From positions 96,001-160,000 of the IMG/VR virus record IMGVR_UViG_3300032334_001433: a stretch of 64,000 bases of DNA; one strand, written 5' to 3'. Both the position numbers and the translations under genes were made by a program. The stretch is from a virus (lineage: Duplodnaviria; Caudoviricetes). The stretch's first letter is position 1; every line of letters begins with the position of its first letter. Under the pieces are notes generated by a model. It ran no database searches. It was not told the origin of the DNA and worked only from the letters and a program-made list of their open reading frames with translations. Of the stretch, positions 16,923 through 32,228 are shown in pieces.

Positions 16923-18406
16923 TGGCCGATATAAAAATAAGAAAAAAGAATGAAGTATATTTGAATATTGATGCTGAGCCTTCAATTGCTCAGGAATTAA
17001 ATAATCATTTTTCCTTCGAAGTACCTGGTGCAAAATTTCACCCTTTGTATAGATCAAAGATGTGGGATGGCCGTGTCAGGCTTTTTTCTATGTTTACTAA
17101 AGAGCTTTATGTTGGCTTAAAAGAGTATGTTGAACATTTTGCAAAAGAACGGGAATATACTGTAGATTTATCTGAGTATGAAAAGACTGCAGATGAGTGT
17201 ACGTTTGAATCGGTAAAAGAATTTTGTAAAAAATTAAACATTGGATCTAAAGGGGAACCTCTTGAAATTAGAGATTACCAAATAGAGGCAGTATATAAAG
17301 CAATAAACGACGGTAGAAGGTTATTACTTTCTCCTACCGGATCTGGTAAATCTTTAATAATCTATTGTATAATTCGTTGGCACTATGAATTTGACAGAAG
17401 GCAATTAATTATTGTACCTACAACATCTTTGGTAGAACAGATGTTTTCAGATTTTCGAGATTATTCTTGTTTAAATGGATGGGATGCTGCATCCCATTGC
17501 CATCGCATTTATGGCGGGCATGAAAAATCTACAGATTGTAATGTTGTTATTAGTACCTGGCAATCTATCTATAAATTACCAAAACAATTTTTTGAAAAAT
17601 TCCAAGTTGTTTTTGGAGACGAAGCTCATCAATTTAAAGCAAAATCTTTAACTGGAATTTTAAATAAATGCCCAGACGCTCCTTATAGAGTAGGGACTAC
17701 TGGTACATTGGATGGTACACAAACGCATAAGTTAGTTCTTGAAGGTATCTTTGGTCCTGTTTATAAAGTCACAACAACTAAGAAACTTATTACAAGCAAA
17801 ACATTATCTGATTTAAAAATCTATAATTTGATATTAGATTATCCGGATGAAATTAAAAAAGCTATGAAGGGTAAAACGTATCAAGAAGAAATGGATTTTC
17901 TTGTTCAATACGAACCAAGAAACAAATTTATTAGAAATTTGACTCTTAAACAAGAAGGTAACAGTCTTGTATTATTTCAGTATGTAGAAAAACATGGCAA
18001 AAATCTATATGAAATGATTAATGCCAAAGCAGAAAATAGAAAAGTATTTTTTGTTTATGGGGGAACAGATACGGAGCAAAGAGAAAAAATTCGAGCATTG
18101 ACAGAACTCGAAAATAATGCTATAATAGTGGCTTCATATGGAACATTCTCTACCGGGATTAACATTAAGAATTTGCATAATATTGTATTTGCATCTCCTT
18201 CTAAATCTCGGATAAGAAATTTGCAATCTATTGGACGTGGTTTGAGAACAACAAAAGACAAAGATAGTTGTAATCTATATGATATAGGCGATGATTTAAC
18301 CTGGAAATCTAAAAAGAATTATACATTACTTCATATGATTGAAAGGATAAAAATATATAATGATGAACATTTTGATTATAAATTAGTGAAAGTTCAATTA
18401 CAATGA
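16922..18406 (+). CDS. uvsW: UvsW SF2 DNA helicase
   Basis: WDGRVRLF, RDYQ, SPTGSGKS, DEAH, LQSIGRGLR. Confidence 0.96.
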   Translation: MADIKIRKKNEVYLNIDAEPSIAQELNNHFSFEVPGAKFHPLYRSKMWDGRVRLFSMFTKELYVGLKEYVEHFAKEREYTVDLSEYEKTADECTFESVKEFCKKLNIGSKGEPLEIRDYQIEAVYKAINDGRRLLLSPTGSGKSLIIYCIIRWHYEFDRRQLIIVPTTSLVEQMFSDFRDYSCLNGWDAASHCHRIYGGHEKSTDCNVVISTWQSIYKLPKQFFEKFQVVFGDEAHQFKAKSLTGILNKCPDAPYRVGTTGTLDGTQTHKLVLEGIFGPVYKVTTTKKLITSKTLSDLKIYNLILDYPDEIKKAMKGKTYQEEMDFLVQYEPRNKFIRNLTLKQEGNSLVLFQYVEKHGKNLYEMINAKAENRKVFFVYGGTDTEQREKIRALTELENNAIIVASYGTFSTGINIKNLHNIVFASPSKSRIRNLQSIGRGLRTTKDKDSCNLYDIGDDLTWKSKKNYTLLHMIERIKIYNDEHFDYKLVKVQLQ

Positions 18407-18822: not shown

Positions 18823-19378
18823 GGAAAAGAAACCTTCGGTTACTGCACATTATGTAAATAATAAAGAATTTTTAGATGCATTAATAGCATATAAGGAACA
18901 AGTTGATGCTGCTAAAGAACGAGGCGAAGAACCGCCCGTTGTAACTAGATACATCGGCGAATGTTTTATAAAAATTGCTACACACCTTTCATACAAATCT
19001 AATTTTATTAATTATACCTTTAAAGATGATATGATCTCGGATGGTATTGAAAATTGTCTAACTGCAGTACAAAAATTTGATCCAACTAAATCTTCAAATC
19101 CATTTGCATATTATACTCAAATTATTTACTTTGCTTTTATTCGTAGAATACAAAAGGAAAAGAAACAACAGGCCACTAAGTATAAAATGATTGAGAATAT
19201 GGATATTGATTCTTTAATCTTGCAAGATCATGACAACGGCGAATTCAGCCACCAATTTTTGGATTACTTAAAACGGCAAATGGATAACATTGATATTGAG
19301 AAACGTAACATCACTATCCCGAAAAAGGTTAAAAAAGTTGAAATAGATTCGGATAATCCTCTTGACATGGATGACTGA
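18755..19378 (+). CDS. gp55: Late transcription sigma factor gp55
   Basis: HYVNNKEFL, YIGECFIKIA, NFINYTFKDDMISDGIENC, NPFAYYTQIIYFAFIRRIQKEKKQ; exact start uncertain. Confidence 0.95.
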   Translation: MKAQMKNTITDIADFEEEKLFIKEKKPSVTAHYVNNKEFLDALIAYKEQVDAAKERGEEPPVVTRYIGECFIKIATHLSYKSNFINYTFKDDMISDGIENCLTAVQKFDPTKSSNPFAYYTQIIYFAFIRRIQKEKKQQATKYKMIENMDIDSLILQDHDNGEFSHQFLDYLKRQMDNIDIEKRNITIPKKVKKVEIDSDNPLDMDD

Positions 19379-19391
19379 TTTACTATATAAT
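19362..19391 (+). promoter_or_regulatory. Sigma70-like promoter for the queE cluster
   Basis: TTGACA-18 nt-TATAAT overlapping the gp55 3' end. Confidence 0.65.
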
Positions 19392-19419
19392 ATATGTTAA
19401 TTTAATTATTGGAGTCTTG

Positions 19420-20277
19420 ATGGCAAAACTTAAAGTTGCAGAATTGTTTTATAGTATTCAAGGTGAAGGCCGTTATATGGGCGTACCTAGTGTGTTTCTT
19501 CGCACATTCGGTTGTAACTTTACCTGCAGTGGTTTTGGTATGCCTAAAGGGGAGTTTAGTCATGAAGTTGATTATATCGCGGCTGACGTACATAAGTTTC
19601 TTACCTATAAAGATTTACCTCTTGTTAGTACAGGGTGCGATTCTTACGCTAGCTGGGATCCTCGTTTTAAGCATCTCAGCCCTGTACTTGATACTGATAA
19701 CATTGCCGATTCAATTATGGATATACTTCCGTACAAGAAATGGGAAGACGAACATCTTGTAATTACAGGCGGCGAACCATTGCTTGGATGGCAAAGATCG
19801 TATCCAGATCTTCTAAACAATGAGAAGATGAAATCTTTAAAAGATATTACGTTTGAAACAAATGGTACTCAAACATTGTCATCCGAATTTAGACAGTATC
19901 TTCTTAATTGGTCTCTTGGTCGTAAAGACAGAGGATATAATGCACTAACATTTTCTGTTAGTCCAAAATTAAGTGTCAGTGGAGAAAAATGGGAAGAAGC
20001 AATCTGTCCAGATATTGTTGCATCATATCAAGACGTTGGATATACTTATCTTAAATTTGTAGTTGCAACTGAAGAAGATGCAGAAGAAGCAATGACTGCT
20101 ATTGATCTATATAAATCTGCAGGATTTAAAGGTCCTGTTTATTTGATGCCAGTAGGTGGTGTCGAAAGTGTTTATGCTATGAACAATCGAAAGGTTGCAG
20201 AAATGGCAATGAAGAACGGTCTTCGATATAGCGATCGTTTACAAGTGCCCTTATTTAAAAACGAATGGGGAACATAA
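19420..20277 (+). CDS. queE: 7-carboxy-7-deazaguanine synthase QueE (radical SAM)
   Basis: ELFYSIQGEG, FLRTFGCNFTC...GCDS, VITGGEP, FETNGT, SPKL, RLQVPLF; GGAG RBS favours the ATG at 19420. Confidence 0.9.
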   Translation: MAKLKVAELFYSIQGEGRYMGVPSVFLRTFGCNFTCSGFGMPKGEFSHEVDYIAADVHKFLTYKDLPLVSTGCDSYASWDPRFKHLSPVLDTDNIADSIMDILPYKKWEDEHLVITGGEPLLGWQRSYPDLLNNEKMKSLKDITFETNGTQTLSSEFRQYLLNWSLGRKDRGYNALTFSVSPKLSVSGEKWEEAICPDIVASYQDVGYTYLKFVVATEEDAEEAMTAIDLYKSAGFKGPVYLMPVGGVESVYAMNNRKVAEMAMKNGLRYSDRLQVPLFKNEWGT

Positions 20278-20341: not shown

Positions 20342-21031
20342 ATGTCATATAACAAGACAAAAACAGACCCAGAATTGGGGCAAAAAGTTCATCAGCATTT
20401 AGTTGCAATGGGAGTCGAGACTCCTACCCGATTAGATCCTACTACCCGATTAGATCTTGATCGTAAAACAAAGATTGAAATAATCGAGTCTCACTTTTCG
20501 GAAATTATGCGAGTGTTGGGCCTTGATTTAGAAGATGATAGTTTAATTGAAACACCAAAGCGTGTTGCTAAGATGTATGTTAACGAAATCTTTTGGGGGT
20601 TGGATTATGACGCATTTCCAAAATGTACTACAGTTAACAATAAGATGAAATACAACGAAATGGTTGTTGAACGCAATGTCAATGTCCAAAGTAATTGCGA
20701 ACATCATTTTGTAGTCATTGATGGATTGGCAACAGTTGCGTATGTTCCAAAGGATAAAGTTCTTGGACTAAGTAAAATTAATCGTATTGTAGAATACTTC
20801 AGTAAGCGTCCTCAGATTCAAGAACGTCTAACAGAACAAATTTATTATGCGTTGCAGTTTATTTTGGAAACAGATAATGTTGCAGTTATGATTGATGCTC
20901 AGCATTATTGTGTTAAGAGCCGAGGCGTAGAAGATACAGGCAGTTCTACCGTTACAAGTAAGCTAGGTGGAGGATTTAAAACAGATCCCTCTCTTAGAAA
21001 TGAATTCTTAAGCATCGCCCGTTCAAAATGA
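20342..21031 (+). CDS. folE: GTP cyclohydrolase I FolE
   Basis: [43 protein letters not shown]. Confidence 0.96.
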
Positions 21032-21538: not shown

Positions 21539-22906
21539 ATGAATATTTACAACAGGAGAATTGCTTTTTGTATTAGCGATCAGCATTTAATTCCATATGG
21601 TGGCATCGGACAATTTGCAAAATCCTTTGTAGAGACTTGTTCTGTTATTGGAATAAAAATTGATATTATATTGGATAAACCTGCATCCAATAAAGACTTT
21701 AGTGCATACCTTCAATCTAGAGGGGCTAATATTATTGTACCTAAAGAGCCACTTAGTTATAGTAAGCATGCTAAAACTTTTATGTTTGAGGATTCTTATA
21801 ACTTTGAAAAGATGATTAATTTTAGAGAATGCTTTATGTCTGCTCTAAATGATAATCTATATGATGTAGTTATTTGTAACACCGTAGAATCATTTCCCGC
21901 AATCTATTCATTGTCTATTCAAGATTCAGTACAAATTGTATACTATACTCATCACGAGAATCTTGTCTTTATGGATGAAAATACTCAGAAAAGTAAATTC
22001 TCAAATTCATTCAATGAATTTTTTATTAAATTGATGGATGTAAAAGGCATTTATATTGGTACACAAACACGTAGAAATGTTGCTGAGATTAAATTATCTG
22101 GTAAAGATGCATACTATACGCCAATACAAATGACAGAAAAAGATTTGCTTTCTCCTCATACAAAGCCAAGAGAAGGTGTACTATGGATTGGTCGTTGGGA
22201 ACCAAGAAAGAACCCTGAAGAATTTGTTCGCATGATTGCAGAAACAAAATTGCCTGCAAAAATTATTACAAATGATACTGGTGCGAAAAAATTTGAAGCA
22301 GCATTAAAAGAAATTAATGCAAAATTTGAAATTCGTTCAGAAATCTATGGTCAAGAAAAAGTTGATTTTATAACATCTGCCCGGGTTGCATATAACCCTG
22401 CAATACGAGAAAGCTTTGGTTTAGCATTTTATGAATGTATTGGGCATATGCCAACGGTTGCACTTAAAGGAATGTCTTGGTTAGAAAACTTTAATGGTAC
22501 GGATTTCTTTAGTGTAGATAAAAAAGATGTAAGTAGCACTATATTAAAATTATATGAACAATACAAAAGTCCATTTGATTGGTACAATACTGGCGCATTG
22601 GAGCGAGTTGTAAATATGGATTTAAGTGGTATTGCAGAATGGTTTAATTTATTTGATTTGTTTAAACCAACACAATCCAATTCTAGTAAAGCAAAAATTA
22701 ATGAATATGAAACGACGCAGTATAAAAAATACATAAACGATCTAAATAGGAAAGATTTATCTATTGATGATATCCGTTCTGTATTGACAAACAAGCACAA
22801 ATATAATATAATTTACACAGACAATCACACCTATCTATCAAAAGATAAAAATTTTGTTCCTGATGAACAAAATTCCTCAAGCACTTTAGAAAGTTTATTC
22901 AAATGA
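21539..22906 (+). CDS. GT-B (GT4-like) glycosyltransferase
   Basis: PYGGIGQF N-terminus, WIGRWEPRKNPE, ESFGLAFYE donor-binding motif. Confidence 0.75.
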   Translation: MNIYNRRIAFCISDQHLIPYGGIGQFAKSFVETCSVIGIKIDIILDKPASNKDFSAYLQSRGANIIVPKEPLSYSKHAKTFMFEDSYNFEKMINFRECFMSALNDNLYDVVICNTVESFPAIYSLSIQDSVQIVYYTHHENLVFMDENTQKSKFSNSFNEFFIKLMDVKGIYIGTQTRRNVAEIKLSGKDAYYTPIQMTEKDLLSPHTKPREGVLWIGRWEPRKNPEEFVRMIAETKLPAKIITNDTGAKKFEAALKEINAKFEIRSEIYGQEKVDFITSARVAYNPAIRESFGLAFYECIGHMPTVALKGMSWLENFNGTDFFSVDKKDVSSTILKLYEQYKSPFDWYNTGALERVVNMDLSGIAEWFNLFDLFKPTQSNSSKAKINEYETTQYKKYINDLNRKDLSIDDIRSVLTNKHKYNIIYTDNHTYLSKDKNFVPDEQNSSSTLESLFK

Positions 22907-24189
22907 GCAGACAAATGGAATATGTAATTTCTGGACCGGCGTACTTGCGTCTTGGTGCAGAACAATGTAATGATCCTGAAGTATTACAGATGATTAATGA
23001 CCTTATTGGTAAGACTGTTCATAATATGAATAATCATCAGTTCTCATTATTGTACAATGGGTTTACTGAAAAACAATTTGGTAAACGTCTACAAAAATTT
23101 AGACCGGCAATTAAAAATATCCATGCTGATTCTGGTGGTCTGCAGATTATTACTCGAGGTATTCAGAATTCCCCTGAGGTCCGTAATGGGGTTTATGAGA
23201 ATCAAGCATCGCATGCTGATATTGGAATGTCCTTTGATGAAATTCCGGTAATTATTACTAATGCAAGTGGTAAATCTGCAAAGCTTGATACTAAAGGTAG
23301 ATATTTTGATCGAGATAACTTTGCAAGTTATGCAAAGCAAACAGGACAAAATATTAAAGCACAGATTGAAAAATTTATTGAAATGAAAAGTGATTGCCGA
23401 CCCTTCGCAATCATTCAAGGTGCTTGTCACGAAACTTATGCAGAGTGGGCAAATATTTTGCTTGAAGAAATTACCGCACCATATCATGATCGTATTGGTG
23501 GCGTATCAATGGCATCTGCTGCATTAGGTACTGGTCAACTTGAAGATGTTAAACGAGCATTTTATGTTAAGGTAATGCCTTTTAAGAAACCATTTCATCT
23601 GCACATTCTAGGAGTTGGTGCTCTGCGTCGAATGCTTCCTTATATGGTGTTTAGTCAGACTGGAATGTATGAGAACATTGAAATCTCTTATGATTCTACA
23701 ACACATTCTATGTCATTGGATAATGGATTGTTTTATTTCTCATATAGTAAGAAAACACGACATGGGTATGGCGGGTCATCTGTAAAAATGGGTAGAGAAT
23801 ATTCAAATATCTATAGAACAGTTGTAGATGAAATCAATAGTGTTTGTGGTACAGAATATACCCCAGAAGAATATCATAAATTGATGAATATTGCAGTAGG
23901 CAAATATCTTGAGAATGGTGGCAAATTCATTGACATTATGAAAGCACGTCTATGTTTTATATTGACAAATGTTCATAATTTTACATTGGATGTCACAACT
24001 TTGTTAGAATCTAAAGATGAATTACTTAAATTCTGCAGAGATAAAGGTTGCGAAAATGAATATGCAACATTGTTTGAAGTTAAAGATATTGGCGACTTTT
24101 CTCATTGGGAAAAGCACGTTGGTAAATATATGGAATCAGAATCTGTGGGCCATCAGCCTAGGATGTCTTTAGAAGATTTATTTGCATAA
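22903..24189 (+). CDS. dpdA: TGT/DpdA-like guanine transglycosylase, divergent
   Basis: ADSGGLQ, IGMSFDE, IIQG, LHILGVG and SYDST match the TGT barrel; embedded among queE/folE/queD. DNA versus tRNA target not determinable from sequence. Confidence 0.7.
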   Translation: MSRQMEYVISGPAYLRLGAEQCNDPEVLQMINDLIGKTVHNMNNHQFSLLYNGFTEKQFGKRLQKFRPAIKNIHADSGGLQIITRGIQNSPEVRNGVYENQASHADIGMSFDEIPVIITNASGKSAKLDTKGRYFDRDNFASYAKQTGQNIKAQIEKFIEMKSDCRPFAIIQGACHETYAEWANILLEEITAPYHDRIGGVSMASAALGTGQLEDVKRAFYVKVMPFKKPFHLHILGVGALRRMLPYMVFSQTGMYENIEISYDSTTHSMSLDNGLFYFSYSKKTRHGYGGSSVKMGREYSNIYRTVVDEINSVCGTEYTPEEYHKLMNIAVGKYLENGGKFIDIMKARLCFILTNVHNFTLDVTTLLESKDELLKFCRDKGCENEYATLFEVKDIGDFSHWEKHVGKYMESESVGHQPRMSLEDLFA

Positions 24190-24199
24190 GGATTATATT

Positions 24200-24625
24200 A
24201 TGTCTATAATTAAAAAGAGTAGTTTTATTTGGGTTACCTTTCAAAAAGAAGGTATTCATCGTTATCCTGCAGCGGCAACTGACGTTAAGTTAGCTACACG
24301 CAGATTTGGTATACCTGAAGAACATTGGCTGGATGTTAGTTTTCTTGCGGATCCGCATCGGCACATTTTCCACTTTCGTGTCGAAATGGAAGTATTTCAT
24401 GATGACAGAGACGTAGAATTTATCCAAGCAAAAAGAATCATGGAGCGTTGGTATAATGATGGTACCCTGCAACTAGATTATAAATCATGTGAGATGATGG
24501 CAAATGATCTATATGATAAATTGATCGCAAAATGGCCAGGTAGGGATTATGTAGTTGAAGTATCCGAAGATGGTGAAAACGGATGCAGAATTCATTTTGA
24601 ATATATTAAAGATATAGATGTCTAA
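24200..24625 (+). CDS. QueD-like T-fold protein (DpdL-like candidate)
   Basis: FQKEGIH..., HRHIFHFRVEMEV, DRDVEFIQ, SCEMMA, VEVSEDGENG; second QueD paralogue in the cluster. AAGGA RBS favours the ATG at 24200 over the TTG at 24182. Confidence 0.65.
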   Translation: MSIIKKSSFIWVTFQKEGIHRYPAAATDVKLATRRFGIPEEHWLDVSFLADPHRHIFHFRVEMEVFHDDRDVEFIQAKRIMERWYNDGTLQLDYKSCEMMANDLYDKLIAKWPGRDYVVEVSEDGENGCRIHFEYIKDIDV

Positions 24626-25691
24626 AATTTTTATTGTAGATTTAGAATCGGTAGATACGCGATACACAGGACAATGGAAACGATATGTACCCAAATTACT
24701 TAAAAAGGAATGTCATGACATCGAAGTTATATGTGGGCCTGCTGATATTCCTAGTGCCACTACTCCTGGCGCCTTTCTTAATTTTGGTGGCACTAATATC
24801 TATAAGTCTGCACAAGTTGAGCAAATGGGCCGTTTATTTGTTAGTGGATCCGTTAATGCTAATGATCATTTTTTATTTACTGACGCTTGGCATCCTGGCA
24901 TTATTAACTTAAAATATATGAGTGAATTGTTGCAGATCCCTGTAACGATTCACGCACTATGGCATGCCGGCAGTTATGACCCTCAAGATTTTTTAGGTCG
25001 CCTTATCGGAGATGCTCAGTGGGTTAGACACGCCGAGCAAAGTTTCTTTCACGCTATTGACCATAACTATTTTGCTACAAATTTTCATATTGATTTGTTT
25101 GCTGATACATTTAGCGAAACAGTAGATGATGAGTGGAAATTAACTATGATTGAGCAAGGTAAGATTGTTCGTTCAGGTTGGCCAATGGAATATATGGTTG
25201 ATACATTAGATAATTATAATACTACAAAACAAGATATTATTTTATTCCCGCATCGTATTGCTCCTGAGAAACAAGTTGAAATTTTTAGAGATCTTGCAAA
25301 GCAATTGCCTCAATATGAATTTATTGTTTGTCAAGATAAACAATTGACTAAACATGAATATCATGAGTTATTGGGTAGAGCTAAAATTGTGTTCAGTGCT
25401 AACTTGCAGGAAACACTAGGCATTAGTTGCTACGAAGGCGCATTAGTTGATGCTATTCCTATGGTGCCAAATCGTTTGTCTTATAGTGAAATGTATAATG
25501 ATATATTCAAATATCCAAGTGAGTGGACAGAATCATTTGAAGCATACGAATTACATCGACAAGATTTATGCTACAAAATTATTCAATACATGAATAATCA
25601 CGATCAATATAAGTATCAAGTTCGTAAACAAGCATCAGACTTAACGGAAAAATTCTTTTCTGCTAATGTATTGACATCAATGTTTAAGTAA
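24618..25691 (+). CDS. GT-B fold glycosyltransferase associated with the deazaguanine cluster
   Basis: FPHRIAPEKQVEIF and LQETLGISCYEG (GT-B C-terminal motif), WHAGSYD. Confidence 0.7.
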   Translation: MSKIFIVDLESVDTRYTGQWKRYVPKLLKKECHDIEVICGPADIPSATTPGAFLNFGGTNIYKSAQVEQMGRLFVSGSVNANDHFLFTDAWHPGIINLKYMSELLQIPVTIHALWHAGSYDPQDFLGRLIGDAQWVRHAEQSFFHAIDHNYFATNFHIDLFADTFSETVDDEWKLTMIEQGKIVRSGWPMEYMVDTLDNYNTTKQDIILFPHRIAPEKQVEIFRDLAKQLPQYEFIVCQDKQLTKHEYHELLGRAKIVFSANLQETLGISCYEGALVDAIPMVPNRLSYSEMYNDIFKYPSEWTESFEAYELHRQDLCYKIIQYMNNHDQYKYQVRKQASDLTEKFFSANVLTSMFK

Positions 25692-25699
25692 TATATAAT
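25671..25699 (+). promoter_or_regulatory. Consensus sigma70 promoter upstream of queD
   Basis: Perfect TTGACA(25671-76)-17 nt-TATAAT(25694-99). Confidence 0.85.
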
Positions 25700-25704
25700 A
25701 CATC

Positions 25705-25770
25705 ACATAGCGGTCTATCGGCATCGTCCCGCTTTATAAATTCCGCCGCCTATGATTAACATAGGAGAAT
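25705..25770 (+). promoter_or_regulatory. Candidate cis-regulatory RNA (riboswitch-like) in queD 5' UTR
   Basis: AGCGG/CCGCT stem; RBS-occluding hairpin CCTATG-ATTAA-CATAGG; alternative CATAG-CGG / CCG-C-CTATG pairing; GC-rich island in an AT-rich genome. Confidence 0.55.
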
Positions 25771-25774
25771 AACC

Positions 25775-26248
25775 ATGGCAAAATACATTTCTACAAAAAC
25801 TTATAACCAGATTGGTCCCGTAGCATATAGACAATGGCGTGCAGATAGTCATTGTAATTTGATTCACGGATATGCACTCTCATTCCATTTAGAATTTGAA
25901 TGTGATACATTAGATGCTCGCAATTGGTGCATGGACTTCGGTGGATTAAAACCTCTTAAAGGTCTACTTGAGGATTGGTTTGACCACACATTATTAGTTG
26001 CTCAAGATGATCCAATGCGAGAGCATCTATTACATCTAGGCACATTAAAATTAGCAAAGATTACAGAAGTTGAAAAGACTGGATGTGAAGGTATTGCTGA
26101 TTTTCTTTATGAATATATTAACACAATTTTCTTACCCAACTATGGCGAAAAAGATCGTGTTTGGTGTTGCAAAGTACAAGTACGAGAAACAGATGCTAAC
26201 ATGGCAATGCGTGTTGGACATAGAGAAGATAACGAATTTAAAGATTGA
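25775..26248 (+). CDS. queD: 6-carboxy-5,6,7,8-tetrahydropterin synthase QueD
   Basis: SHCNLIHGY, MDFGGLK, FDHTLLV, GCEGIA, VRET. Confidence 0.92.
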   Translation: MAKYISTKTYNQIGPVAYRQWRADSHCNLIHGYALSFHLEFECDTLDARNWCMDFGGLKPLKGLLEDWFDHTLLVAQDDPMREHLLHLGTLKLAKITEVEKTGCEGIADFLYEYINTIFLPNYGEKDRVWCCKVQVRETDANMAMRVGHREDNEFKD

Positions 26249-30034: not shown

Positions 30035-32203
30035 ATGTCACTAGCAAACTCAAAATCTATTCTTGCAAAGCTGCTTGCACAAGAAAACATCTCTGTGCAA
30101 CATAAGAAAACTTCTACCGCATACTTTGATCCTAAGAACCGAATTCTTGTTCTTCCTATTTGGAAAGAAATGAGCGGTGATCTATATGATCTTCTTGTTG
30201 GGCATGAAGTAGGGCATGCTTGGGAAACTCCTCCCGATGGTTGGCACGATGCGGTGCGTGGCCATACTCCAGGATTCAAATCTTATCTTAACGTAATCGA
30301 AGATGCCCGTATTGAGAAATGCATTAAAGTTCGATACCCTGGTTTACGTTCATCTTTTTATAAAGCATATAAAGATTTAGTTGAAAAAGATTTTTTCGGT
30401 ATCAACGATATTGATGTAAGTACTCTACCATTCATTGATCGTATCAATCTGCATTTTAAGGTAGGTCCTTTTATGGCTGTACCTTTTTCAGATGAGGAAC
30501 AGGTTTACATCAAACGAATTGACTCTCTAAAATCTTGGGACGAGGTTCTAACTATTGCAAAAGAATTGTATAACAATCAAAAGGCAATTAATGAGGATGA
30601 GGTAAAATTAGAACAACGTAAAAAACTTAGAATCAACGGCGACATCGAAGATCTCGATGGAGAATTCTCTGATGACTTTGATATTGAATTTGATTCTGAT
30701 TCTGATGATTTTGGCGATGATGACCAAGACGGCGAAGACGGTGAGACAGGCGAATCTCGAGCAAAAAATAAAAATGCCGGTAAGAACGATCCAAGTTCTA
30801 TTACAGATCAAGAATTTCGCAGCCGAGAAGCAGACTTGTTATCAAATGATGTTCGCCCATATAAGTATTTCAATTTACCAAATGTAAAAATTGAAGATGT
30901 AATTATTCCTCACGATTACCTATATAAGAATACTAATTGGGAATCGCTAGATAATAATGACCGGTACAAAGATGTAAATACTCTCCTTGCAAACTACAAA
31001 CAAACTAATGGTAAGTTTATTCAATATCTTGTTAAAGAGTTTGAATTAAAACGAAACGCAGCTCAATTTGCTCGAGCAAAAGTTTCTAAAACTGGAGAAT
31101 TAAATCTAGATAAAATTTTTAGTTACAAATATAATGAAGATCTTTTTAAACGTGTTACTAAAATTCCAGGTGGTAAGAATCATGGAATGATAATGTTTAT
31201 AGATTGGTCAGGTTCAATGACCGACAATATTACTCAAACAATTGAACAGACGCTAGTGCTTGCAGATTTTTGCAAAAAAGTAAATATTCCTTTCCGAGTA
31301 TTTTCTTTTACAGATTCATCAGGCGGAGTCGTTGAATCATTTATTAAGAATAAGTATGGTCTTCCTGGATATCTTGCAGGTAAACATCATGCAACTTTTT
31401 CAAAGAATCCATTAGATTTGGTAATAAATGGTTACGCTTATAAAAGTTTTGAATTGTTATCCAATAGTATGACAACTGCTCAATATAATTTTGCGCAGAA
31501 AAAATTATTACAATTTGGTGCAATTTATACGAATTCTCGGTATATGAGATATGCTGATATCCCAACCGGATGGGAGCTAAATTCGACTCCTTTAAATGAA
31601 GCGGTTATATTTGCAAATCATTTTATACCCGTGTTTAAAGAAATGTATAAATTGGATATTGTTAATACTATTTTCCTTACAGACGGAGAAGGTAATTATT
31701 TGAATCAAATAGTTACTCCCGAAGGAACCCAAAGAGATGCAAATTCATATTATGGATTAGGTTATCGAGTATCTTCAAATATTGTAGTAACTGATCCAAA
31801 AACAAAAATATCGGGATATGCCGCACCGGGTCAACCTGTTACCGCAGCTCTTCTAGATTTGCTCAAAAAACGTACAGACACAAATCTTGTAGGATATTAT
31901 ATTATGAGCAGATCTTCAAGAGGAGTTGTCCAAAGAATTTTGGATACAAGTGGGCTGCAAAATAAAGAAGATTCTACAAATATTATTGGCAAAATTCGAA
32001 AAGACAAATTTTATTCTTTATCAACATATGCATATGATAAGTATTTTTTGGTTGTTTCGGATGATCTAGTTATTGAAGATGGAGAAATGGTAGTGACCAG
32101 CGATACATCGAAAAAAGATCTTATGAAGGCTTTTATTAAGAATCGTAAATCTAAATTGATGAATCGGATACTTTTGAACAAATTTATTGAAGAAATCGCT
32201 TGA
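30035..32203 (+). CDS. cobT: CobT-like protein: HExxH domain, acidic linker, VWA domain
   Basis: HEVGH, NVIEDARIE, D/E-rich linker, MIDAS IDWSGS...TP...TDGE; partner of the adjacent AAA ATPase. Confidence 0.75.
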   Translation: MSLANSKSILAKLLAQENISVQHKKTSTAYFDPKNRILVLPIWKEMSGDLYDLLVGHEVGHAWETPPDGWHDAVRGHTPGFKSYLNVIEDARIEKCIKVRYPGLRSSFYKAYKDLVEKDFFGINDIDVSTLPFIDRINLHFKVGPFMAVPFSDEEQVYIKRIDSLKSWDEVLTIAKELYNNQKAINEDEVKLEQRKKLRINGDIEDLDGEFSDDFDIEFDSDSDDFGDDDQDGEDGETGESRAKNKNAGKNDPSSITDQEFRSREADLLSNDVRPYKYFNLPNVKIEDVIIPHDYLYKNTNWESLDNNDRYKDVNTLLANYKQTNGKFIQYLVKEFELKRNAAQFARAKVSKTGELNLDKIFSYKYNEDLFKRVTKIPGGKNHGMIMFIDWSGSMTDNITQTIEQTLVLADFCKKVNIPFRVFSFTDSSGGVVESFIKNKYGLPGYLAGKHHATFSKNPLDLVINGYAYKSFELLSNSMTTAQYNFAQKKLLQFGAIYTNSRYMRYADIPTGWELNSTPLNEAVIFANHFIPVFKEMYKLDIVNTIFLTDGEGNYLNQIVTPEGTQRDANSYYGLGYRVSSNIVVTDPKTKISGYAAPGQPVTAALLDLLKKRTDTNLVGYYIMSRSSRGVVQRILDTSGLQNKEDSTNIIGKIRKDKFYSLSTYAYDKYFLVVSDDLVIEDGEMVVTSDTSKKDLMKAFIKNRKSKLMNRILLNKFIEEIA

Positions 32204-32228
32204 CACGATCTTCAAAAGATGTTATAAT
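32200..32228 (+). promoter_or_regulatory. Early sigma70-like promoter
   Basis: TTGACA-17 nt-TATAAT with extended -10 TGT. Confidence 0.85.

Follow-up and report, generated by a model that had tools for sequence, protein, structure and literature searches.

The preQ1-I riboswitch (RF00522; types I-III, with examples from B. subtilis queC, T. tengcongensis, and E. coli yhhQ) folds into an H-type pseudoknot whose P1 is 5-6 bp long and whose L3 is rich in A; its specificity base is a cytidine of L2, and a uridine of L1 and an adenine of L3 line the pocket together with this base (PMC10622847). The preQ1-II (RF01054) and preQ1-III (RF02680) riboswitches are also pseudoknotted 7-deazaguanine aptamers. 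The element analyzed here, which lies in the leader of a phage queD gene, is related to the same pathway and would likewise act at the level of translation, but preQ1-II and preQ1-III are larger, have extra helices (an embedded hairpin or the HLout topology), and are OFF switches, and their models do not match it. SAM-II and SAM-V are similar to it as classical H-type pseudoknots that are stabilized by their ligand and have a groove triplex formed by the loop that follows helix 1; they differ in being associated with methionine/SAM genes, in their conserved bases, and in having the ribosome-binding site (RBS) inside the knot (OFF), and again there is no model match. THF-II (the folE motif) is a small aptamer that recognizes the guanine-like face of pterins, and it controls the GTP cyclohydrolase branch, from which QueD is supplied as well. 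It is, however, a bacterial hairpin with internal loops, not a pseudoknot, and its model gives no match either.

Phages themselves provide a case of translational control by such a structure. Like the queD element, the leader of T4 gene 32 has its H-type pseudoknot at the mRNA 5' end; unlike it, the gene 32 pseudoknot goes with gene 32 and is where binding of a protein, gp32, nucleates. To our knowledge, phage-specific riboswitch classes are almost unknown, and none is known to control a DNA-hypermodification pathway. Full-text literature searches found no description of a queD-leader element, and the word "riboswitch" is absent from the description of the relevant phage pathway by Cui et al. 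2023 (PMC10516641).

Genomic Context of queD

The window, i.e., the whole stretch of 64,000 nucleotides that was analyzed, comes from an IMG/VR virus record of 202,665 bp, of which it spans bases 96001-160000; the record has direct terminal repeats. This lake phage is T4-like and encodes a Gp23 capsid protein, UvsY, UvsW, gp46/47, and a late sigma factor of the gp55 type. The genes of interest are the following.

19417-20277, + strand: QueE-like radical SAM enzyme
20342-21031, + strand: FolE
22903-24189, + strand: DpdA3-like transglycosylase (428 aa), whose homologues are annotated as queuine tRNA-ribosyltransferase
24182-24625, + strand: DpdL-like protein (147 aa), with the DpdL signature LxxxHRHxF
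24618-25691, + strand: GT4-like protein, directly upstream of the queD leader
25775-26248, + strand: queD (PTPS/QueD family, 157 aa), identified from its translation (Pfam PF01242, 3.3e-15; PHROG 2389)

The DpdL-like protein matches phiST and ACP17 at the place where Cui et al. 2023 (PMC10516641) locate DpdL, and the same work proposes a route without QueC that leads from GTP through H2NTP, CPH4, CDG, and DG to DNA. The Pfam models of QueC and TGT have no match in the entire phage genome. A DpdL homologue is encoded by 15 of the 16 long contigs that bear the queD-leader motif, and a full-length QueC by none of them. Hence, the genomic setting is that of a QueC-less 7-deazaguanine pathway. Some related contigs do have matches to PF06508, but these are partial (about 60 of 210 positions) and were not counted as QueC.

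In the QueD protein of the window, the usual signature of the family, CxxxHGH, is replaced by CxxxHGY. This replacement is found in 98 of the 102 distinct proteins encoded behind the element. The CxxxHGY enzymes form a distinct branch of QueD, so the leader RNA may mark a variant chemistry. Only 2 nt separate the queD stop from the start of the next gene, and a translational switch at the queD RBS would act on queD itself.

The queD Leader in the Window

The elements of the leader are listed below, with P1 and P2 the two helices of the pseudoknot and L1 to L3 its loops.

25671-25699, + strand: sigma-70 consensus promoter (12/12 match), TTGACA at 25671-25676, 17-nt spacer, TATAAT at 25694-25699
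25709-25713, + strand: P1 5' strand, AGCGG, paired with 25729-25733
25714-25719, + strand: L1, UCU (N-C-U conserved), then the linker AUC, of variable length
25720-25726, + strand: P2 5' strand, GGC-AU-CG, with distal GGC and proximal CG paired, A25723 and U25724 unpaired
25727-25728, + strand: L2, UC, with C25728 invariant, unpaired, and immediately 5' of the P1 3' strand
25729-25733, + strand: P1 3' strand, CCGCU; the 5-bp P1 encloses a 15-nt loop
25734-25743, + strand: L3, A-rich tail UUAUAAAUUC, with invariant A25736, A25738, A25740, U25742, and C25743
25744-25750, + strand: P2 3' strand, CG-CC-GCC, with C25746 the invariant partner in a U.C mismatch
25745-25765, + strand: sequestering structure, in which CCUAUG (25749-25754) pairs with CAUAGG (25760-25765) and hides the AGG of the RBS
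25763-25777, + strand: RBS AGGAG (25763-25767) and start codon ATG (25775-25777)

All the letters of the perfect TTGACA-17-TATAAT promoter described in an earlier note on this sequence are thus present, as are the P1, its 15-nt loop, the A/U tail, and the CCUAUG:CAUAGG hairpin over AGGAG that the note had drawn. From the promoter spacing, the transcript is predicted to start near 25706-25707, 2-3 nt 5' of P1. No RNA sequencing run is listed among those that contain the sequence. The window contains five perfect sites of this kind where 0.17 would be expected. Among the relatives, only the closest (L005-L007) have the perfect promoter in common.

P2 in the window consists of GGC (25720-25722) paired with GCC (25748-25750) and CG (25725-25726) paired with CG (25744-25745) around a 2x2 internal loop. 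This P2 is weaker than the family norm, as A25723.C25747 is a mismatch at a position that is paired in relatives. The mismatch variant recurs in two other leaders (L174 and L234), ahead of different QueD subtypes. On its own, the leader has a folding energy of -15.7 kcal/mol (z = -0.74), which was matched by 46 of 200 shuffles. The single-sequence fold is not above chance; the case for a real element is a comparative one.

Conservation across Phages

The element lies directly before queD in most of the 80 IMG/VR contigs that encode a QueD at 83-100% identity, and the genes upstream vary among the contigs that share it. A pattern scan in which GGUCU, CCC, and the tail were the only fixed parts, and which left the outer three P1 pairs free, found at least 120 further viral loci. 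Among the matches listed there are 98 distinct IMG/VR sequences, and nearly all of these form the five pairs of P1; the few exceptions have no gene behind them. R1, a covariance model built on P1 alone, gave 97 matches in 100 sources, with scores of 23.7-66.7 bits and one copy per related source. On the phage's own 202-kb genome, it identified a single copy (59.2 bits), the next-best match scoring less than 9 bits, and the queE and folE leaders of this phage have no such element.

The gene behind the element is also conserved. Of ten divergent N-terminal types tested, eight belong to PF01242, the other two being a methyltransferase-like protein and an 85-aa protein of unknown kind, and nearly all remaining genes share the ..STKxY N-terminus of PTPS/QueD. 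ACP17, BUDD, and X1, the nearest annotated phages (QueD 63-72% identical), have no comparable leader because their queD overlaps or abuts the upstream gene. In cellular genomes, the pattern has at least 120 matches; among the first 120 listed, five have a full P1 and none has P2 or the expression platform. Within the sequences searched, all instances of the element come from phage contigs.

Covariation of P1 and P2

P1 occurs as AGCGG/CCGCU, ACCGG/CCGGU, AGAGG/CCUCU, AGUGG/CCACU, and AUCGG/CCGAU. In the alignment, 99-100% of its cells are paired, and two of its pairs change on both sides (GC/CG/UA and CG/UA/AU). The family register of P2 consists of a distal helix of 4-5 bp, one conserved U.C mismatch, and two proximal pairs. 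The proximal pairs are C-A/U-G, becoming C-G/C-G in a minority of leaders; without exception, the R:Y pair is either A:U (91 distinct leaders) or G:C (12). The distal helix is more diverse, with the forms GGCG:CGCC, GGCA:UGCC, GGUG:CACC, GGGC:GCCC, GAAC:GUUC, GACAU:AUGUC, GGCAU:AUGCC, AUGC:GCAU, GGCU:AGCC, and GUGU:ACAC.

The P1 covariation score was reached by none of 500 shuffles, and the distal P2 in a fixed register has 79% of its positions paired (50 +/- 5% in shuffles) and all four pairs in 18 of 34 strand combinations (6.3 +/- 1.9 when shuffled, 0 of 2000 shuffles attaining the observed value); these controls overstate significance because the sequences are related, and the variety of pair types is a stronger argument than the shuffle statistics. 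Alignment A2 was fitted to P1 only and is hence unbiased for P2. In it, five of the six P2 pairs change on both sides, a conservative count because about one-fourth of the rows sit one column out of register, and sliding the P2 partner cuts pairing from 89% to 27-50%. When the register is left free, self pairing beats cross pairing modestly (mean 4.07 vs. 3.46 pairs), in a test that discriminates poorly because most strands are GGCN/NGCC-like. The invariant unpaired positions are C25728, A25736, A25738, A25740, U25742-C25743, and C25746.

The earlier note had touched on the pseudoknot only briefly, as a possible pairing of CGGC with GCCG. Such a pairing is possible in the clade of the window, but the family as a whole keeps another, longer register of 7-8 positions. 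The conservation and covariation in homologous leaders by which the note proposed to judge the element are found for both P1 and P2, in about 100 distinct leaders. It thus seems almost certain, as far as comparison of sequences can tell, that the queD leader holds a real, conserved, and covarying cis-regulatory pseudoknot. A functionless chance fold in an intergenic spacer would agree with a folding energy no better than that of shuffles, but its probability is negligible given that many distinct homologous leaders, compensatory changes in two helices, and one strong match per source.

Covariation and conserved loops suit the binding site of a protein as well as they suit an aptamer. P2 and the sequestering helix might then be set against each other by a phage translational repressor or activator, or by QueD itself. 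A protein-binding operator was also among the options of the earlier note, and T4-type phages do have RNA-binding translational regulators, with the gene 32 pseudoknot as a precedent. A protein operator nevertheless appears unlikely. One enzyme family accompanies the element across very different phage backbones and promoter types, whereas no candidate binding protein travels with it and the adjacent upstream genes differ. Moreover, its size and loop conservation are typical of small-molecule aptamers.

Relation to preQ1-I

At permissive thresholds, searches of the window and one relative against Rfam returned only noise, at other coordinates or on the opposite strand, so that the check suggested in the earlier note (preQ1-I, preQ1-II, preQ1-III, and THF-II included) yields no family match. 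The RF00522 model gave none at E values up to 10 in window positions 25300-26100, in the 81 nt of 25700-25780, or in positions 1370-1460 of L017, a relative with an AGAGG/CCUCU P1. The note's description of a small element similar to preQ1-I but away from its consensus is therefore apt.

The similarities with preQ1-I are considerable. Both are H-type pseudoknots with a 5-bp P1 ending in GG/CC and a pyrimidine-led L1, and in both an A-rich L3 follows the P1 3' strand, here with three invariant adenines. C25728 occupies the place of the preQ1-I specificity cytidine (PMC10622847). In both cases, the regulated gene belongs to the 7-deazaguanine pathway, and control would be exerted on translation. 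One could therefore regard the element as an ordinary, if diverged, preQ1-I member, with preQ1 or preQ0 as its ligand and feedback repression of queD translation (OFF) as its effect.

The differences make such membership very unlikely. Besides the silence of RF00522, P2 has 7-8 positions with a U.C mismatch, compared with 3-4 bp in preQ1-I, and L3 is longer (10-11 nt) and ends in an invariant U-C, whereas that of preQ1-I ends in A. Most leaders begin L1 with U, but some with C or A; together with the U-C end of L3, this suggests that the preQ1-I pocket may not be reproduced. The Shine-Dalgarno sequence of preQ1-I lies in or abuts the P2 3' strand, whereas that of the queD leaders is 13-20 nt beyond P2, and the competition of P2 with an anti-RBS or anti-start helix would turn translation ON instead of OFF. 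Finally, the phages that host the element lack QueC and hence have no preQ0 or preQ1 of their own making. The queD leader is best filed with riboswitches of the small pseudoknot kind, but not as a member of preQ1-I.

Expression Platform and Proposed Mechanism

Downstream of the pseudoknot, the leaders show two designs of expression platform, in both of which the platform and part of the aptamer are mutually exclusive. In the window, CC (25749-25750) closes the RBS hairpin, and GCCG (25745-25748) can pair with UGGC (25776-25779), a pairing that involves the start codon. Both halves of the sequestering structure thus draw on bases of the P2 3' strand, and its predicted stability of -9.5 kcal/mol falls to -1.5 kcal/mol once this strand is withheld. 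In the other design, represented by 36 relatives, 31 have an anti-start helix of 6-9 bp, which overlaps the P2 3' strand by at least 3 nt in 28 of the 31. The helix itself varies, with forms such as UGCCAUC/GAUGGCA, UGUCAUC/GAUGACA, UGUCAUA/UAUGACA, and UGCCAUUG/CAAUGGCA.

As the P2 3' strand overlaps the helix that hides the RBS or the start codon, formation of the pseudoknot should free translation. The two platforms follow the same logic, which implies a choice between the pseudoknot, with the RBS free, and the sequestering helix, with the RBS hidden. This differs from the switch in the earlier note, which opposed fold A (P1 plus the RBS hairpin) to fold B (CAUAG-CGG paired with CCG-C-CUAUG). 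Fold B does exist in the window but is not conserved: its upstream half keeps at least four pairs, and so reaches past the two P1 bases, in only 15 of 67 related leaders. From these alignments, the pseudoknot is the conserved core, and the competition is that of P2 with the RBS- or start-hiding helix, not that of fold A with fold B.

These observations suggest the following mechanism. The aptamer would be a phage-specific H-type pseudoknot of about 42 nt (25709-25750), made up of the 5-bp P1, the P2 of 7-8 positions with its conserved U.C mismatch, an A-rich L3 probably lying in the groove of P1, and an invariant unpaired C at the P1/P2 junction. As long as P2 is unformed, a helix would hide the Shine-Dalgarno sequence, the start codon, or both, and queD translation would be blocked. 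A ligand would stabilize the pseudoknot, release the RBS, and turn queD translation ON. That the element is a metabolite riboswitch, in which P2 competes against a sequestering helix, seems reasonably probable; given a riboswitch, the ON direction is likely. For a biosynthetic gene, the ON direction is unusual, and it has no obvious end-product logic.

A structure of the 5' mRNA end that acts without ligand (a stabilizer against decay, a folding chaperone that opens the RBS, or a thermometer) would be in line with the position of the element, 2-3 nt after the predicted transcript start, and an early-forming pseudoknot could hold the anti-RBS strand without any ligand. This explanation is quite unlikely, as the invariant unpaired bases (C25728, the L3 adenines, the U-C, and the U.C mismatch) would be superfluous in a stabilizer, and a competing helix conserved in two designs implies a regulated choice.

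Candidate Ligand and Significance

If the queD leader is a metabolite riboswitch, as we favor, its effector is most likely a metabolite of the pathway, as the earlier note had suggested. A guanine-like heterocycle from the QueC-less 7-deazaguanine DNA-modification pathway is the probable ligand. Because FolE, QueE, and the DpdL-like and DpdA3-like proteins are present and QueC is absent, the likely candidates are 7-deazaguanine, CDG, a pterin intermediate (H2NTP or CPH4), or the guanine released by DpdA. The more specific proposal, i.e., a new, phage-only riboswitch class that senses an intermediate or product of a QueC-less dDG-type pathway and turns QueD translation ON, has in our judgment a little less than an even chance of being correct.

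If it is correct, a phage DNA-modification pathway would for the first time be known to be under the control of a riboswitch. Should 7-deazaguanine or a pterin be the compound bound, the element would provide a natural sensor, about 42 nt in size, for this compound, as well as an ON-type relative of preQ1-I, the best-studied small pseudoknot aptamer. It would also show that phages meter the flux into anti-restriction DNA bases from GTP, a compound on which folate synthesis draws as well.

Promoters Ahead of the Pseudoknot

Perfect TTGACA-N16-18-TATAAT promoters occur five times on the + strand of the window, against 0.17 expected by chance, and three of the five stand immediately in front of genes of the deazaguanine pathway (the queE-like gene, the DpdA3-like gene, and queD).

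Perfect TTGACA-N16-18-TATAAT promoters in the window
18098-18126, + strand
19362-19391, + strand
22784-22812, + strand
25671-25699, + strand
32200-32228, + strand

Among the related phage contigs bearing the motif (L008 to L283), TAAATA is found at most 30 nt upstream of helix P1 in 53 of 103 distinct leaders, ending most commonly 5 nt before P1 (site 4-8 nt upstream). This element resembles a T4-type late promoter (TATAAATA), also in its position, which would put the transcript start at P1. The clade of the window has instead a sigma-70-type promoter, at an equal distance from P1.

Pairing Variants in the Leader

In helix P2 of the window, GGCA faces CGCC, leaving an A.C mismatch (25723/25747) beside the CG:CG proximal pairs. 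The same arrangement is present in two related contigs, L174 and L234. Since this variant recurs before different QueD subtypes, the mismatch is presumably tolerated, or the strands are paired in a shifted register.

In type-1 leaders, the loop of the hairpin that hides the RBS (e.g., in L008, ...CCUAUGCUAUAAU...) is itself complementary to sequence around the start codon. The loop sequence UGCUAU is complementary to AUGGCA; where the start context is AGCAUG, its complement in the loop is UAUGCU. These matches hint that the hairpin-type platform has a second pairing, directed against the start codon. Such complementarity is absent from the short RBS-hairpin loop of the window, AUUAA.

Genes Behind the Motif and the Deazaguanine Cluster

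Nearly all distinct PTPS/QueD proteins encoded behind the motif (98 of 102; window 25775-26248 and genes of L005-L283) contain CxxxHGY, whereas the QueD signature is CxxxHGH. A tyrosine thus replaces the second zinc histidine, and these proteins may form a distinct enzyme branch. In a few contigs the first gene is not queD.

Other first genes behind the motif
L208:4620-5339, - strand, Methyltransf_9-like protein, 240 aa
L166:6348-6602, - strand, unknown protein, 85 aa
L073, ~2750-2830, small ORF upstream of queD

Two further ORFs of the window resemble deazaguanine proteins.

DpdL-like and DpdA3-like ORFs
24182-24625, + strand, DpdL-like, 147 aa, signature LxxxHRHxF (FLADPHRHIFHF), matching phiST and ACP17 DpdL
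22903-24189, + strand, TGT/DpdA3-like, 428 aa, distant likeness; no match to the Pfam TGT model

No Pfam family is assigned to either of two large ORFs of the cluster (24618-25691 and 21539-22906); the former has a PA5oct-like homologue that carries the annotation family 4 glycosyltransferase. No QueC was found across the entire phage genome, suggesting dDG-type DNA modification in this phage.
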